Below, piece after piece: positions 44,261 to 50,685 of a stretch of 53,369 nt of DNA. The DNA is from a virus (lineage: Duplodnaviria > Caudoviricetes): IMG/VR virus record IMGVR_UViG_3300001848_000569, positions 1 through 53,369 of that record; one strand, 5' to 3'. The notes under the pieces are model-generated. The model was given only the letters and a program-made list of their open reading frames with translations, did no database searches and had not been told where the DNA came from. The position numbers and the translations under genes were made by a program. The stretch's first letter is position 1. Each line of letters starts with the position of its first letter.

Positions 44261-45226
44261 ATGGTCAATATAGAATTAGCAATAACAAAGGAGTTAATCC
44301 TTAAAAAATGTTCACAAGAACAGATATATAGTCATTATTTAGGTAAATATAAAATTGGATCTGCCATGAAGTGCCCTTGGAGAGAAGATAGAACTCCTAG
44401 TTTTTCACTTTTCTATAACTCAACTGGGGTACTTCTATGGATAGACCATAGTTATCATGAAATAGGAAACGTATTTCAATTAGTCCAAAGAATATTTAAT
44501 TTGAGGTTTGTGGAGACTCTAAAGAAAATATCAGTTGATTTACATTTAAATACTATTACAAATTTTAATAATAATCCACTTGTAATAAGTTATATACATA
44601 ACAATCCGGTAGAATTTTCAGATGAAGAAAGACCATTTACTAGTATTGATTTACAATATTGGGAAAACTATGGTATAAGTCAAAAAACACTATTTAAGTA
44701 TAATATATTTGCTATTAATAAGCTATTTATTAATGGTAAGTGGAAATGGTCATATAGCAATTCTTGTCCTATTTATAAGTTTTTAGATCAAGAATCTATT
44801 AAATACTATAGACCACTAGCTCCAAAACATAGTAAATGGAAAGGAAATGGTGTTAATATTATACAAGGATGGGAACAATTACCAAAGGGAAAACTAGATA
44901 TGTTAGTAATTACCAAGGCTAGAAAAGATATAATGACCCTAGATGAGTTAGGTATATTTTCCATAGCTACTATTACTGAAAGTAAAAAATTTACCACTGA
45001 ACAAATATCTAATATAAAAGATAAGGCAAACATTATTGTGAGTGTTTTTGATAATGACGTTTGTGGCTTAAAACAAAAAGTTTACCTAGAATCATTTGGT
45101 ATTAAAGGTTTTATCATAGAAGAAAAAAGTAAATTAAATAAAAGATTGGATATTTCGGATTTTAGAAAAGAATATGGTAAAGAAAAATTAATAAATAAAT
45201 TAAAAAGTTTTAAAATTTTAAAGTAA
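44261..45226 (+). CDS. dnaG: DNA primase (DnaG-like, TOPRIM)
   Basis: CPWREDRTPSF zinc-finger-like region; ITKARKD; FDND..G; LDISD. Confidence 0.85.
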   Translation: MVNIELAITKELILKKCSQEQIYSHYLGKYKIGSAMKCPWREDRTPSFSLFYNSTGVLLWIDHSYHEIGNVFQLVQRIFNLRFVETLKKISVDLHLNTITNFNNNPLVISYIHNNPVEFSDEERPFTSIDLQYWENYGISQKTLFKYNIFAINKLFINGKWKWSYSNSCPIYKFLDQESIKYYRPLAPKHSKWKGNGVNIIQGWEQLPKGKLDMLVITKARKDIMTLDELGIFSIATITESKKFTTEQISNIKDKANIIVSVFDNDVCGLKQKVYLESFGIKGFIIEEKSKLNKRLDISDFRKEYGKEKLINKLKSFKILK

Positions 45227-45705
45227 TGAGAACAGTTAAGTATGTTAATACTTCTAATAATGCAATTAGTAAGTTTGAAAATGTTGAAAATGGATTAACT
45301 TGGGGTGAATTTAATGAACAATATCTTCATCTAAGTTCTAGTGATCTAAGCGGTAATAATTTTGCTGTTATTGAAGGTTCAATTGGTTTAGTTGGCCCAT
45401 CAACTCTTTTACCTGATGGTGATATTAGAATTGCTTCTAGTCCAAGTAAAATGAAAGCCGGTGAAGTAGATTCTAATGAAATAGTTGAGCTTAGAAAATT
45501 AAGAGATGAATTAAATAATAGAATCAATTCTATTATTTTACATCCCGAAATTTGTGAGTCACTATATGATCTAATTGAATCATTGGAAACATCAGTAGAA
45601 ATTGCAGCAGATTCAGTTGGTACTGCTACTACTACTAGTAGTAAGAAATCTTCTTCTGATGATAGAGATTTAGAAGAGGCCCGTAAGCTACTTGGGGGAA
45701 GATAA
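45226..45705 (+). CDS. Putative ubiquitin-like (beta-grasp) precursor with C-terminal extension
   Basis: N-terminal 79 aa (strand-strand, TWGEF helix, LLPDGD, terminal strand) end in KMKAG; protein ends LLGGR; directly upstream of E2/JAB/E1. Confidence 0.6.
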   Translation: MRTVKYVNTSNNAISKFENVENGLTWGEFNEQYLHLSSSDLSGNNFAVIEGSIGLVGPSTLLPDGDIRIASSPSKMKAGEVDSNEIVELRKLRDELNNRINSIILHPEICESLYDLIESLETSVEIAADSVGTATTTSSKKSSSDDRDLEEARKLLGGR

Positions 45706-45720
45706 TATACAGATATTAAT

Positions 45721-45759
45721 ATAAAGGGGAAGATTCAAATTCTTCCCCTTTATTATTTT
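45721..45759 (+). terminator. Intrinsic terminator / attenuator after the Ubl gene
   Basis: 13-bp stem ATAAAGGGGAAGA/TCTTCCCCTTTAT with T-rich tail. Confidence 0.75.
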
Positions 45760-45772
45760 AAACTTTAAAAAT

Positions 45773-47035
45773 ATGACAACCATATTAGAACCAGATACCA
45801 TTGTTAGTAAAACAGAGGATTTAGAGTTTTTTAATGAAAAAAGTAATATTTTTAATTATTATTTAGTAAATAGTAAAAAAAAAGACCCCACTTTTACGGA
45901 TATACTTAATGTTAAGAAAGTAGAAGTTTATAAAGATTCTTCAGCAGTTTATTATTTAAAGGATTTTTTTGGTGATGGGTATAGTTTTAGTGCAAAGGAC
46001 TTAAAAAGTACTTTTTCAATTATTAATGATGAACAAGTAAAAGTAATAGTAGATAAGTCTATTGGTCTTTTTAAGTCAAAATTACAAGATATTAAGGGTA
46101 TTTTTCAAACTTTTTATTTAGCAGAAAATCTCGATATTACGCAATTGGACTATCTTTTAGCGAATATAAAAACTATTAAAACTAGAGATACTAATTTCGA
46201 TATTTATATTAAATTTCCAAGTATTTTAATAAAAAATTCTAATGGGAAATCGCATTTTATAAAAGATTTATATATCAAATTTCAATTCTCTTATGATTAT
46301 GGAAATAATGTTTTGCGTTTAGCTAATTTATATGGCTATAGACCCAATAGAACTTTAGGAGAATGGAAAGCAGAATATATACATTCTCATATACAAGGTT
46401 CTGGTACTAGTAGCACTCCATTTAATTCTGGATTTTGCTTTGGGAGTACTAAGATTGCAGTTTCTTTTTCAAAATTACGTCATTCCGAAATAAATTTTAC
46501 TACGCAAGATTTAGAAACCTTTTTAATTGAATTTATAGGTTATTTATCTTGGGAATCTTTAGAGGGCGGGCCATATCGTAGAATAGGAGATATATCTAGT
46601 GCTAATTATATCCCTCTATCTGGTTTACAAAAATATAATATTGATACAGAAGAATGTGTTAAAATTATTCAAAATATTGATATTCCTATTATAGATAGAA
46701 ATGGTATTCCAGAAGTAGATTCGCAAAAGTTAGAAAAGATTTTATTAAGTTTGTCTATTCCTAATTTATCTATTCCTTTTTTAGGATTTAACTCAGAATT
46801 AAATTTATATCTAACACCAAATACTTCTGATGAAAGAGATGAAATAAATCGGTATAAAAAAGTAGTATCCCAAAGATCTTTTAAATTTAATAATTCTACT
46901 ATAAAAGGAGATGTAATTAGTACTGATTTTGAAAATAATTCATTAATTAACAAAGTTATTAATCCTAATTATCTTAATAGTCTAACAATTGGAATAAATA
47001 AAATTTTAATAAATAATTTAAACCATTTAATTTAA
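45773..47035 (+). CDS. Prokaryotic E2-like (UBC-fold) protein
   Basis: YIHSHI...FCFGS (H-x-H then catalytic-Cys-like motif); downstream WESLEGGPY; operon context. Confidence 0.6.
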   Translation: MTTILEPDTIVSKTEDLEFFNEKSNIFNYYLVNSKKKDPTFTDILNVKKVEVYKDSSAVYYLKDFFGDGYSFSAKDLKSTFSIINDEQVKVIVDKSIGLFKSKLQDIKGIFQTFYLAENLDITQLDYLLANIKTIKTRDTNFDIYIKFPSILIKNSNGKSHFIKDLYIKFQFSYDYGNNVLRLANLYGYRPNRTLGEWKAEYIHSHIQGSGTSSTPFNSGFCFGSTKIAVSFSKLRHSEINFTTQDLETFLIEFIGYLSWESLEGGPYRRIGDISSANYIPLSGLQKYNIDTEECVKIIQNIDIPIIDRNGIPEVDSQKLEKILLSLSIPNLSIPFLGFNSELNLYLTPNTSDERDEINRYKKVVSQRSFKFNNSTIKGDVISTDFENNSLINKVINPNYLNSLTIGINKILINNLNHLI

Positions 47036-47043
47036 AAAAAATT

Positions 47044-48399
47044 ATGAAACATAATAGAAAAAGAACTATTGTTAAGGGATTTACTCCCCCTTCTAATAAT
47101 ATTCAGCCTACGATTACTCCGAGATTACAAGTAATTGATCTTTATCAAAATAAACCAACTGTTATAATTTCTGAAAAACTACAACAAGAAATAGATTTAG
47201 CTCATACAAAAGTTGGTCCTATTGAATGGTGTGGAGTACTATTGTTTAAAGAGGTAAGTGGTAATATTCATGATGGCAACCTAGTAATAATGGCAGATCA
47301 TTTTCATTTAATGGATATTGGTAGTGCAGCACACACTTCTGCTTCTATTACTACTGAAACCATTAGTGAAATGATGGATAAAGGTGGTGTATTTGATATG
47401 ATAGAAGATGGGTATAAACGTGGACTTATTCACACACATCATAACATGGCTACCTTCTTTTCAGGAACAGATATGGAGGAATTACAGGATAATACTCGTC
47501 ATTATGAGTATTATCTATCTCTAATTGTTAATTTTAAGGGAGAATATACTGCTAAAATAGCAATGATTGGTAAACCTAATAAGGAGGAATCACAAGTGGA
47601 GTATACGTATCGTTTTGGTAAAGTATATACTTCTCCTACAAAACTTAATGATGTTCTATTAACCGCGGATTGTTCTATTCAATTTGAACAACCTCCTTGT
47701 AATTTAGTTTCTGAATATTTTACAAACAGATTAACTGAATTTGTAAATAGACCAAAAACCTATCCTGTTTATCAACCGTTTAAAAGTAATACAACTATTC
47801 AAACTAATTTTCCAGTTACTACGATTAGACATCTTTATATGGATAAACAAGGGTGTAAGGAACTAATTAATCTTGAAAAGAGTAATTGTGTTGAAATAAG
47901 ACTAAGTTTAGTTAATACTCCTAATAATCGTTTTAATTTAAATATTAAAGATTATCTAACATTTGTATTTGCTGATTCGGCTGATGATTTAAGTAAAGAA
48001 TTATCTTATATTCTAGCTAACTTTAATAGAAAAAACCTAGTTAAAAACAAAAATGGTGTTACTATTATCAAGAACTTATTCATGGATTATTTCAAGAATC
48101 TTGATGATTTTATTGATCAATGTTTAACTACTGCCGGTATTCAACCTTCTATCATTGATAATCTATTAGGGAATCAACAATTATATAGCGAAGTTGTTTT
48201 AAAGGTAATAATGGCCTCTATTAAAATGTTGAGTAAATACGATTATTTAGAGTTAGTTAAAGATTATATTAATGAATTAAAAGACTCTAATATTGTAGAT
48301 TTTGATATTTCTGAACAGACTGTTAAAAACTATGGAGTAGAAGAAACTCAATCATTAATTATTCCTTCTATATCTGATTTTGCTGATTTTCATGAATAA
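47044..48399 (+). CDS. JAB/MPN+ metalloprotease
   Basis: EWCGVL...IHTHHNMATFFSGTD fits E...HxH-x7-S-x2-D. Confidence 0.88.
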   Translation: MKHNRKRTIVKGFTPPSNNIQPTITPRLQVIDLYQNKPTVIISEKLQQEIDLAHTKVGPIEWCGVLLFKEVSGNIHDGNLVIMADHFHLMDIGSAAHTSASITTETISEMMDKGGVFDMIEDGYKRGLIHTHHNMATFFSGTDMEELQDNTRHYEYYLSLIVNFKGEYTAKIAMIGKPNKEESQVEYTYRFGKVYTSPTKLNDVLLTADCSIQFEQPPCNLVSEYFTNRLTEFVNRPKTYPVYQPFKSNTTIQTNFPVTTIRHLYMDKQGCKELINLEKSNCVEIRLSLVNTPNNRFNLNIKDYLTFVFADSADDLSKELSYILANFNRKNLVKNKNGVTIIKNLFMDYFKNLDDFIDQCLTTAGIQPSIIDNLLGNQQLYSEVVLKVIMASIKMLSKYDYLELVKDYINELKDSNIVDFDISEQTVKNYGVEETQSLIIPSISDFADFHE

Positions 48400-48408
48400 T
48401 TTTTTAAA

Positions 48409-49137
48409 ATGGAAGATATACTTGAATTAGAAAATCCTGATTTGCTTGTTTCAAATAGAATGACAAGGTTTAAAGATTCAGGTTGGTATCAACGAGACAA
48501 TATGCCCGCAGTTTTAGTTTTAGGCTGCGGGTCTATTGGTTCTTTTCTATCTTTGTGCTTGTCAAGAACTGAATGTCCGTTATATCTATATGATATGGAT
48601 ACCTTTGATGAAGTTAACTTTTCTGGTCAACTTTGTAAAAAAGGAGATGGTGGTAAATTAAAAACTACAGCTTTAATAGAAACTCTTGCGCTATTAAATG
48701 ATGGAGTTAATTATGTTCAAGATTCTGGTCTTGAATATAATAATTCTTGCCCTACTAATAATATTGTTTTTTCATGTTTTGATAATATGAAAGCTAGAAT
48801 TTTAGCTTTTAATAAATGGAAAGAATATGAAAATAGAGAAATTTTTATTGATGGTAGAATAAATGCAGAAAGCTTTCAAGTATTTTTTGTACAAAAGGGG
48901 AATGAAGAGGAATATATGAAAAATCTCTTTGATGACTCACAGGTTGCTGATTTACCATGCACTTATAAATCTACTACTCATTGCTCAATGCAAATTGCTT
49001 CTATGATGATGGCAGGGTTTGCTAACTATTTATTTAATAAAAGAGTTGGAGATACTATTAGAGAAATTCCATTTAAATATGAACTAATAATGCCAATTTT
49101 TAAAAATGTAATTGAAAATGTCGGTAACACTAAATAA
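48409..49137 (+). CDS. E1/ThiF-family adenylating enzyme
   Basis: GCGSIGS; YDMDTFDEVNFSGQ; K; CFDNMKAR; IDGR; PCTYK cysteine. Confidence 0.9.
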   Translation: MEDILELENPDLLVSNRMTRFKDSGWYQRDNMPAVLVLGCGSIGSFLSLCLSRTECPLYLYDMDTFDEVNFSGQLCKKGDGGKLKTTALIETLALLNDGVNYVQDSGLEYNNSCPTNNIVFSCFDNMKARILAFNKWKEYENREIFIDGRINAESFQVFFVQKGNEEEYMKNLFDDSQVADLPCTYKSTTHCSMQIASMMMAGFANYLFNKRVGDTIREIPFKYELIMPIFKNVIENVGNTK

Positions 49138-50224
49138 TCTTTTTAACAGTAAACTTACTACAGTTCCTTTATTTAGTTTATCTTCTATAAAAGATGGATA
49201 TATTCCTGTATGCAGTATAGTTAATAATTACATTTCTTCTTTAAGGGAAGAATCGGAATTTATTAATTATAAAGGAAGTGAAAAGGTTCTTATATCCTTA
49301 ATGTTAAAAAAAGATATATTAACAAAAGATGTAGTTAATTCTATGACTCTTGGGTTACTAGAGGATAACTGTTCTAATGTAAGTATATATATGCAAAACG
49401 ATTCTTTAAACAAAGAGGAATTAGTACAGTCAATTTTATTTAAAGACGATGTTTCAACTTGTAGTTCTTTTAAACAAACCCGTATTGTTAATTCTTCATA
49501 TATAAGATCTTTCGGTTCTTTATTTACTAAAGATTATAAACCTATTGTACTAGTTTTACTAAAACAAGAGTATCTTGAAAAGTTTTGTTTAAAATTAATT
49601 TTAGGTAAAAAATTAATTCCTGAAAGTAATGATGAAGTAATTATTTATATAAATAATTCTTTGTTTGAATCGGAATTAAGTGATTCTTTACAAGCTCAAT
49701 TTAAATTAGTAATTAAAGAAAATAAACTACCAACTATTATAGATAATGGTGAAATGTTTTCAGATTATTTCTTTCCTTTTAAATATCCAGACTTTAGCGA
49801 TTTAAATGCTAAATCGAAATATTTTAAAGAAATGTCTACAAAATTTCGGACAATTGTAACAAATCGCTATGAAAAACTAAAGAAGGTTAATAAATTTAGA
49901 CCGCTCACTACGGAGATTTTAAAAAAAATAATTAGTAAAGGTGATGTATCAAAACTATTATTAAAAATAAATCCTGATAGCGTTGTATTGGATCCTAAAG
50001 GTAGAATGGTATTCAAAAAATATTCCGATGAAAGGTGTGGTTCGTTTGAAACGCCAATTAATACTATAATATCAGGAATAAATTTATCAAAAATAAATGA
50101 GTATACTTTTTCCATTTATTATGTTAATGAAGAGAGCGATGTATATTCTATTAGTAATAATGGAAAAGAATACAGTTGGAGATATTCTTCTGGCAATTAT
50201 TGGCTTTATAGACTCGAACAATGA
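49112..50224 (+). CDS. Hypothetical protein following E1
   Basis: 370-aa ORF overlapping the E1 stop. Confidence 0.6.
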   Translation: MKMSVTLNNLFNSKLTTVPLFSLSSIKDGYIPVCSIVNNYISSLREESEFINYKGSEKVLISLMLKKDILTKDVVNSMTLGLLEDNCSNVSIYMQNDSLNKEELVQSILFKDDVSTCSSFKQTRIVNSSYIRSFGSLFTKDYKPIVLVLLKQEYLEKFCLKLILGKKLIPESNDEVIIYINNSLFESELSDSLQAQFKLVIKENKLPTIIDNGEMFSDYFFPFKYPDFSDLNAKSKYFKEMSTKFRTIVTNRYEKLKKVNKFRPLTTEILKKIISKGDVSKLLLKINPDSVVLDPKGRMVFKKYSDERCGSFETPINTIISGINLSKINEYTFSIYYVNEESDVYSISNNGKEYSWRYSSGNYWLYRLEQ

Positions 50225-50685
50225 TTATTACACTAGGTAGATTTCCAACACATATTCAAACTTCTAAATATAAGTTTAAAAAAATAAATGGTAATCTAAT
50301 TTGGGCAACCACTAATCATTTTATTAGAGCAAAGATAAAAGAACAAATTAGTTCTTTTATTATACCTTTTTTACCTGAAATAGTTTTTCCTTACCCAGTA
50401 GAAATTGAAATGGAGTTTCATGTTCCTTGGAATTATAATACAGTTCAAATGAGAAAAGGACGTATTATCTGGAAAAATGAAACGAATTTTCCCAATAATC
50501 AAAAATGGGATGTTGGAAATTATGGAATGGTTTGGGATAAAGCCTTTCTTGACTGTATAGTTGAGAAAGGCTTACTTCCTGATGATAGTGTTACTTATAT
50601 TAGAAGTAGTGGTAAAGTTACTTTTTTCCCAGTTAACAGTCTGGAAGAAAGAAAAATAGTTTTTATAATAAAAAAATATAAATGA
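50221..50685 (+). CDS. RusA-like Holliday junction resolvase
   Basis: WDVGN...KAFLDCIVEKGLLPDDS. Confidence 0.75.
   Translation: MIITLGRFPTHIQTSKYKFKKINGNLIWATTNHFIRAKIKEQISSFIIPFLPEIVFPYPVEIEMEFHVPWNYNTVQMRKGRIIWKNETNFPNNQKWDVGNYGMVWDKAFLDCIVEKGLLPDDSVTYIRSSGKVTFFPVNSLEERKIVFIIKKYK

Follow-up and report, generated by a model that had tools for sequence, protein, structure and literature searches.

Conjugation of ubiquitin-like (Ubl) proteins in prokaryotes has so far been shown only as bacterial antiphage defence, namely in the Bil, type II CBASS and Bub systems. The Bil system (BilABCD), which corresponds to operon class '6d' of Iyer et al. (2006), consists of four separate genes in the order Ubl, E2, JAB and E1 (PMC11601596, PMC1779556). 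Here, we analyzed a 53,369-nt virus record, IMGVR_UViG_3300001848_000569 (hereafter the window, meaning this whole stretch; approximately 52% complete according to CheckV, with a G+C content of approximately 27%), in which a run of four genes at 45226-49137 on the plus strand seems to encode the phage counterpart of this chemistry. A first-pass annotation of the window had read these genes as a Ubl, an E2, a JAB peptidase and an E1, lying co-directionally between a primase and a resolvase. All four open reading frames (ORFs) were found at these positions, and a further ORF of 370 aa also lies between the E1 and the resolvase. The parts of that annotation were largely upheld: judged from its sequence, the locus appears to be a putative Ubl cassette of the Bil-like kind carried by a phage, in which the E1 is minimal and the E2-like protein represents a family not recognised before.

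Relatives and gene order

Using the E1 as query, tblastn retrieved 74 phage records (29 Flavobacterium FpV4-like, 29 Bacteroides crAss-like, 12 'uncultured' and 4 others), while the 420-aa E2-like protein retrieved 48. The counterparts in phage crAss001 are gp79, gp78, gp77 and gp76, found directly after the primase gp80, and FpV4 carries a four-gene run in the identical order. The GenBank labels of the four genes in these two phages are hypothetical, hypothetical, 'metalloprotease domain' and 'thiamine biosynthesis ThiF'. A literature search combining crAss-like phages with ThiF, ubiquitin or JAB returned no description of the cassette; its coverage did not extend to Yutin et al. (2018) or to the supplementary operon tables of the Bil and Bub papers, which might list phage-borne examples. 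Likewise, when Yutin 2021 (PMC7886860), the crAss001 paper and the 2023 Crassvirales review (PMC10136315) were queried for the words ThiF, ubiquitin and metalloprotease, none of these occurred; JAB was also absent from Yutin 2021 and the review, and MPN from Yutin 2021.

The cassette DNA had no blastn match in the phage collection, and a related-locus search with the single E1 protein found no relatives; the loci were recovered with an alignment of the E2-like protein as query. A profile of the E2-like family identified 152 relatives among the IMG/VR viral contigs, of which the loci of 80 were kept. ORFs were called in 82 loci (L001-L082) and searched with hidden Markov models (HMMs) seeded from the window proteins and iterated. 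The Ubl and JAB genes were detected in all 82 loci, the E2-like gene in 81, the primase in 79 and the E1 in 78. The order Ubl, E2-like, JAB, E1 was kept in 77 of the 82, so that the gene order of the window extends to related loci. Sixty-seven loci presented the exact order primase, Ubl, E2-like, JAB, E1; in seven more it was kept, but the JAB or E1 ORF was split or two Ubl ORFs were present, and another three kept it without a detected primase. As for the exceptions, four loci end before the E1 and one has no detected E2-like ORF. The three enzyme genes are tightly packed, with gaps of 10 nt or less between the E2-like and JAB genes in 66/70 distinct loci and between the JAB and E1 genes in 61/66. 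Close adjacency of the primase, on the other hand, did not hold as a general feature, since only 7 of 67 related loci have this gene 10 nt or less from the Ubl gene. The location inside a replication block noted by the first-pass annotation is correct for the window, but the cassette is conserved throughout a very large group of phages and does not represent a one-off acquisition.

We also scanned one genome per prokaryote species (185,579 species) and obtained only four loci, all of them in metagenome-assembled genomes (MAGs), which indicates that the cassette is essentially a phage feature. The whole set of four genes is present in two of the MAG loci (L083 and L084), whereas the short contigs L085 and L086 contain only some of it; the detectable genes follow the phage order. 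L084 belongs to a Nitrososphaerota MAG and L083 to a Bacilli MAG. Because L083 is embedded in a 640-kb contig, its cassette may belong to a prophage or some other integrated element in a host that is not a member of Bacteroidota.

Ubl precursor, JAB peptidase and E1

The motifs previously listed for the four proteins were all present in the translations, at residues that are invariant or nearly so across homologs, and as read from these translations their presence is far beyond chance. The first gene encodes a Ubl precursor of 159 aa (45226-45705, plus strand, as for all cassette features below). Its beta-grasp fold, suggested earlier for residues 1-79 (45226-45462), was confirmed. This domain ends in the motif KMKAG (residues 75-79), the last residue of which is the proposed activated C-terminal Gly. 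Searches by sequence recovered only one close homolog, and the family was obtained by iterating an HMM over the syntenic ORFs. G79 was the only invariant column among 64 Ubl sequences, with T25, P63 and K77 conserved in at least 90%. In a set of 77 distinct Ubl sequences, the Gly was present in 76, the lone exception being an alignment truncation. It is preceded by Ser (59 sequences), Ala (16) or Gly (1), and a Lys stands two residues before it in 67 of the 77.

Beyond the Gly, the window precursor continues with a C-terminal extension (residues 80-159 and the stop codon, 45463-45705) for which helices are predicted at residues 83-105, 107-131 and 145-157, and which we propose is removed by the JAB peptidase. 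The length of this tail varies greatly among 76 homologs: 15 have 1-5 aa, 3 have 22-24 aa and 58 have 52-252 aa. This spread is the pattern expected of a Ubl precursor cut at the Gly and points to a probable cleavage at G79. Overhangs of 2-9 aa after the conserved Gly occur in 12 BilA homologs, according to Hor et al. (10.1101/2023.09.04.556158). The tails of the phage proteins fall into many unrelated clusters, that of the window being a singleton, and may be functional domains released by cleavage. The largest cluster contains 19 of the 58 tails of at least 40 aa, and its common conserved element begins a few residues after the Gly. Examples of tailed precursors are found at L002:3928-4797, L020:3868-4650, L053:4011-4673 and L056:3725-4705. 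When compared with Pfam, the tails gave nothing above the cut-off; one sub-threshold SAP-like match (L031 lineage) serves as a lead only.

The third gene (47044-48399) encodes a protein of 451 aa, of which approximately residues 48-175 (47185-47568) form the catalytic domain, while the C-terminal 250 aa or so are poorly conserved. It carries the residues E61, H130-T-H132-x7-S140-x2-D143, each of the five named positions being conserved in 65/65 sequences. The window protein falls just below the cut-off of the Pfam Prok-JAB family (E 2e-4, 21.6-24 bits for a cut-off of 25), and 39 of 63 family members match this model at E≤0.01, the best at 4e-8. With the family profile, the best PDB matches were Rpn11-like proteins, CSN5 and JAMM1, which are of deubiquitinase or deSAMPylase types and align through HxH-x7-S-x2-D. 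The fourth gene (48409-49137) encodes a minimal, single-domain E1/ThiF-type adenylating enzyme of 242 aa with the motifs G39-x-G41-x-x-G44, D62-x-D64, N70 and P183-C184-T-Y-K187. Its single ThiF domain spans residues 34-203 (Pfam ThiF, E 3.9e-11, 43 bits, above the cut-off of 28.1; phrog_15670, E 3e-42), and lengths in the family are mostly 218-267 aa. UBA5 was the best PDB match of the family profile (4.3e-14), followed by MccB (4e-12), MoeB (1e-10), Cap2 (1e-7) and BubCD (4.6e-6), with NEDD8 E1, SUMO E1, ThiF and PaaA also matched. Residues G39, G41, D64, N70, K85, D125, R130 and C184 were each found in 62/62 members, and a set of 57 sequences had G39, G41, S45, D64, N70, K85, D125, R130, R150, Y169 and C184 as invariant positions. 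At the level of sequence, these family matches and invariant catalytic residues bear out the identities initially given to both proteins, as members of the JAB/JAMM metallopeptidase and E1/ThiF families. Longer forms of the E1 also exist: gp76 of crAss001 (L001 7446-8597) has an N-terminal extension of approximately 160 aa before its ThiF domain (residues 162-357), and E1s of 381-418 aa were observed in a few other loci.

The Ubl gene is separated from the E2-like gene by 67 nt in the window, a gap that holds a terminator-like hairpin of 13 pairs with a 7-nt loop, followed by a T-rich tail (45721-45763). This gap is at least 30 nt long in 63 of 70 distinct related loci, and 54 of these 63 gaps contain a hairpin and T-run, with minimum free energy z-scores mostly from -4 to -8. 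As a control, other same-strand gaps of 30-120 nt from the same loci had a hairpin and T-run in 26/100 cases (Fisher p = 2.6e-14). The structure is conserved, the hairpin sequences being unrelated across loci. From this conservation we infer partial termination or transcript stabilisation, such that the modifier would be made in excess of the enzymes. A second terminator-like hairpin was noticed within the E1 gene, towards its 5' end (48504-48532; 11 pairs, 6 of them G-C), with a tail that is not T-rich. It is probably due to chance, as two such sites were found in 8 kb for 2.0 expected.

The E2-like protein and competing explanations

The second gene (45773-47035) encodes the E2-like protein, the assignment of which is the weakest of the four. 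With 1,792 clusters at 50% identity (E≤1e-3; 454 at E≤1e-10), its family is large, and it is wholly unannotated. A profile search of a large protein database with this family gave no Pfam-annotated matches. Conservation is centred on residues 140-280 or so, and the N- and C-terminal regions are variable. The window protein carries the motifs Y202-x-H204-S205-H206 and F221-C222-F223-G224, the codon of the candidate catalytic C222 being at 46436-46438. Nine residues were invariant in 70 sequences (Y202, S205, H206, C222, G224, E261, S262, G265 and P267), and an independent set from the viral loci had N155, H206, C222, G224, E261, S262, G265 and P267 in 73/73 each. The conservation of the Cys expected from the first-pass annotation was hence complete in both sets. 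The predicted model (pLDDT 82.1, pTM 0.76) contains helices, a four-strand meander at residues 139-194, a loop with the H-S-H motif and C222, and helices at 227-237 and 244-258, so that C222 is placed between the strand 192-194 and the helix 227-237. A UBC domain is laid out as a helix, a four-strand meander, an active-site loop and helices. The predicted order of elements in the core (approximately residues 120-280, 46130-46612) matches this layout. A structural comparison (VIA) pointed in the same direction, since 21 of its top 50 rows were, by title, E2 enzymes or domains, including the bacterial Cap2, with 5 RWD and 1 UEV. On the model, the best reading is a UBC-like fold with a conserved, active-site-like Cys, supported by the genomic context and not assignable to any known E2 family. 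The fold proposed earlier stood as the best structural reading, whereas neither sequences nor profiles revealed a resemblance to any E2 family searched.

Considering the four proteins together, we find it reasonably probable, with some reserve, that the cassette encodes a Ubl activation and conjugation pathway working like bacterial Bil. In such a pathway, the JAB peptidase would cut the 159-aa precursor after Gly79, removing the variable extension and freeing a 79-residue beta-grasp modifier. The minimal E1 would bind ATP-Mg, adenylate Gly79 and probably pass the modifier to its invariant Cys184, from which it would move to the invariant Cys222 of the E2-like protein. The target may be chosen by the variable N- and C-terminal regions of the latter, with no separate E3, and the JAB peptidase could possibly reverse the modification as well. 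Owing to the conserved hairpin that follows the Ubl gene, the modifier would be produced in excess over the three enzymes. The cassette would probably be expressed with the middle (replication) genes, a timing that we infer from gene position only; in the available part of the crAss001 RNA-seq paper (PMC8375218), replication functions are middle genes (10-30 min), and gp76 to gp79 are not named there. Conjugation might be directed at host proteins, the replisome or host Ubl defences. A broader proposal, that crAss-like phages and their environmental relatives run their own Ubl cascade at the replication stage, with a JAB-cut fusion, a minimal E1 and a giant E2 family acting on replisome or host proteins, is more tentative, and we hold it to be somewhat doubtful in this full form.

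Several results weigh against a conjugation pathway, most of them concerning the E2-like protein. The best VIA score was 6.2, which is below the tool's own level, and the match may reflect a common arrangement only; the same rows include unrelated folds such as Mediator subunits and frataxin. Foldseek against the PDB returned nothing at E≤1e-3 for the model. Pfam found no E2 family and no recurring family in any of the 70 members, and the family profile had no relevant match among PDB sequences. The Prok-E2_D and UQ_con models, the only two run genome-wide, matched 0/5 relatives at E≤1, and PADLOC found no E2 family for this protein, nor any match for the Ubl or the JAB peptidase. Upon alignment with three Prok-E2_D sequences by hhalign, the Cys motifs were aligned locally, with a probability of 0.3% and an E-value of 0.21. 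The E1 also departs from its relatives. In the window, Gly73 replaces the canonical Arg of the N-x-x-R-Q motif, as it does in 50/62 members; the Arg is found there in UBA5, by alignment, as well as in MoeB and MccB. The adenylation chemistry may therefore differ. Only the N-terminal half of the E1 aligns to solved E1s, the profile of the C-terminal half having no match in the PDB, and thus C184 is not placed on the catalytic Cys of any of them.

Structural matches of the E2-like protein in BFVD were limited to its own uncharacterised family, and hhalign of the family with a single Prok-E2_D sequence was not significant. A complex prediction for the E1, Ubl (1-79) and E2-like protein (86-420) had a score of 0.00, which speaks neither for nor against binding.

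The strongest rival explanation is that the E1, Ubl and JAB proteins form an activation module in which the 420-aa protein is not an E2 but an acceptor or target, a UEV/RWD-like adaptor or another Cys-His enzyme such as a peptidase or transferase, the Ubl being attached by the E1 directly or otherwise used. Non-catalytic RWD and UEV domains belong to the same fold class and score as high as true E2s in VIA, which fits this idea, as do the failure of every sequence method to find E2 homology, a length about three times that of a canonical E2, and the invariant E261, S262, G265, P267 and N155, for which we know of no counterpart in E2s. Nevertheless, non-catalytic UEV and RWD domains lack the Cys, whereas the phage protein has an invariant Cys, with an invariant His just upstream, in the loop where a UBC domain has its active site. 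Moreover, its gene is tightly coupled to the JAB and E1 genes, and the gene order equals the Ubl-E2-JAB-E1 of Bil as described in PMC11601596. For these reasons, we consider this rival unlikely, although it is the most serious one.

In a second alternative, the cassette would be a sulfur-carrier pathway of the ThiS/MoaD, CysO-Mec+ or QbsCDE type, where the JAB peptidase trims the Ubl, the E1 adenylates it and a thiocarboxylate acts as the sulfur donor, for instance in making a modified nucleotide or cofactor required by the phage while it replicates. The carriers ThiS, MoaD, Urm1 and SAMP end in Gly-Gly. The phage Ubls end instead in [S/A]-G, with Gly-Gly in only 1/77, and a sulfur-carrier role leaves the co-conserved, Cys-bearing E2-like protein unexplained. 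The significant PDB matches of the E1 to MoeB and ThiF and its GenBank label as a thiamine biosynthesis protein agree with this alternative, and sulfur-transfer operons with a triad of an E1, a JAB and a small beta-grasp protein have been described (Iyer et al., 2006, PMC1779556). In line with the first-pass annotation, which saw no sulfur-transfer genes nearby, a search of the window for rhodanese, cysteine desulfurase and ThiS family members was negative: the Rhodanese and Aminotran_5 (cysteine desulfurase) models matched 0/1 in the window and 0/5 in complete or large relatives, and the ThiS model PF02597 matched 0/5 records (the window and four relatives) at E≤1. The annotations around the cassette in crAss001 and FpV4 list no thiamine or molybdopterin genes either. 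Missing sulfurtransferases in phage genomes are weak evidence, however, because the host could supply them. We regard a sulfur-carrier pathway as improbable. Finally, we give very little credence to an E1 acting like MccB or PaaA, which would adenylate the C-terminus of a ribosomal product to yield a modified peptide or a protein-nucleotide adduct (antibiotic-like or signalling) and no protein tag. In its favour, the window E1, used as a single sequence, has MccB as its best PDB match (E 0.006), MccB ranks second with the family profile, and PaaA was matched too. Against it, the molecule to be adenylated is no short peptide but a folded beta-grasp of 79 residues, and the presence of JAB and E2-like partners is left unexplained. 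MccB-type enzymes also have an N-terminal peptide-clamp domain, for which there is no room in an E1 of just 242 aa whose nucleotide-binding loop is preceded by about 30 residues.

If the cassette is indeed a conjugation pathway, its E2 would define a new family alongside a minimal E1, and the question of what a phage tags during replication would arise. On the broader proposal given above, it would be the first complete virus-encoded cascade of Ubl, E1, E2 and deubiquitinase in a virus of bacteria, mirroring Bil from the other side of the arms race, and would place a conjugation cascade in the most abundant phage group of the human gut. The released tail may then be a second functional product, as in the eukaryotic fusions of ubiquitin with ribosomal proteins. 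The cassette is directly testable, since it is present in the cultivable phages crAss001 (on Bacteroides intestinalis) and FpV4. With Lys standing two residues before the Gly in most Ubl sequences, trypsin should leave a two-residue [S/A]-G remnant on modified lysines, thus offering a handle for mass spectrometry.

Genomic setting and comparison with known systems

The minus strand of the window encodes the portal, large terminase and major head proteins. The replication block lies on the plus strand and includes a DnaB-like helicase, a Sak4-like ATPase, the primase, a RusA-like resolvase, an exonuclease and a DNA polymerase. The primase gene (44261-45226, plus strand; phrog_12622, E 1.7e-33) is outside the cassette, and its stop codon overlaps the start codon of the Ubl gene (TAATG). 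On the other side, the 370-aa ORF (49112-50224, plus strand) separates the E1 from the resolvase gene (50221-50685, plus strand), occupying the place of a poorly conserved fifth gene. It had no match in Pfam or PHROG and no relatives among the related loci. In 46 of 76 loci, the ORF 3' of the E1 belongs to one BLAST cluster, and about ten more join it by HMM. This cluster also had no Pfam or PHROG family match and shows no obviously catalytic conserved residues, and the 370-aa ORF of the window is not detectably related to it. Four metatranscriptome runs contain a 0.06-0.23 share of the window stretch, which we do not read as evidence of expression or habitat.

As for the described systems, the cassette resembles Bil, beyond its gene order, in having a Ubl with a conserved C-terminal Gly, where short overhangs are possible (10.1101/2023.09.04.556158), and no E3. 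It differs in being part of the replication module of lytic-type phages, while Bil is a bacterial defence. Furthermore, its E2-like protein is 420 aa long with no detectable sequence similarity to known E2s, and its Ubl consists of one beta-grasp domain, in many cases followed by a long extension at the C-terminus (up to 252 aa). The cassette is not a member of Bil, as its E1 of 242 aa has a single domain and fails the E1 architecture that defines that system.

Pairs of a Prok-E2_D protein (PF14460) and an E1, many of them from phages, offer another comparison. All the nearest named Atlas clusters of the E2-like core are Prok-E2_D (0.85-0.87, structure TM 0.46), which we take as a lead only. 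The conserved Cys motif of Prok-E2_D, C-L-G-[ST], resembles the F-C-[LF]-G-S of the cassette, and a genuine member lies directly upstream of a ThiF-type E1 in L087. Prok-E2_D proteins are, however, about 250 aa long, compared with about 400 aa in the cassette, and the three sequences aligned have no H-S-H motif. L087 (618-2184, minus strand) is on another contig of the same Nitrososphaerota MAG as L084. There, the Prok-E2_D protein (263 aa, 61 bits) is followed by an E1 of 294 aa and preceded by an unknown protein of 400 aa, and the pair looks like a second, distinct E2 and E1 module. A search of 400 genomes for further Prok-E2_D members found none.

The cassette is more distant from the remaining systems. 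In type II CBASS (Cap2/Cap3), Cap2 is an E1-E2 fusion that conjugates the CD-NTase, apparently with no separate Ubl, unlike the separate genes and dedicated Ubl of the cassette. Bub (6E/DUF6527) has an E1 and an E2 without catalytic Cys, forms oxyesters and uses the DUF6527 serine protease, as described in PMC11601596, whereas C184 and C222 are invariant in the cassette; the DUF6527 model (PF20137) matched 0/5 records. The TAPI/TAPK pair of lambdoid phages is similar in that a phage beta-grasp with a C-terminal Gly is accompanied by a JAB predicted to cut there. According to PMC1779556, this pair is located in the tail module without an E1 or E2, whereas the cassette is found in the replication module together with both an E1 and a candidate E2.

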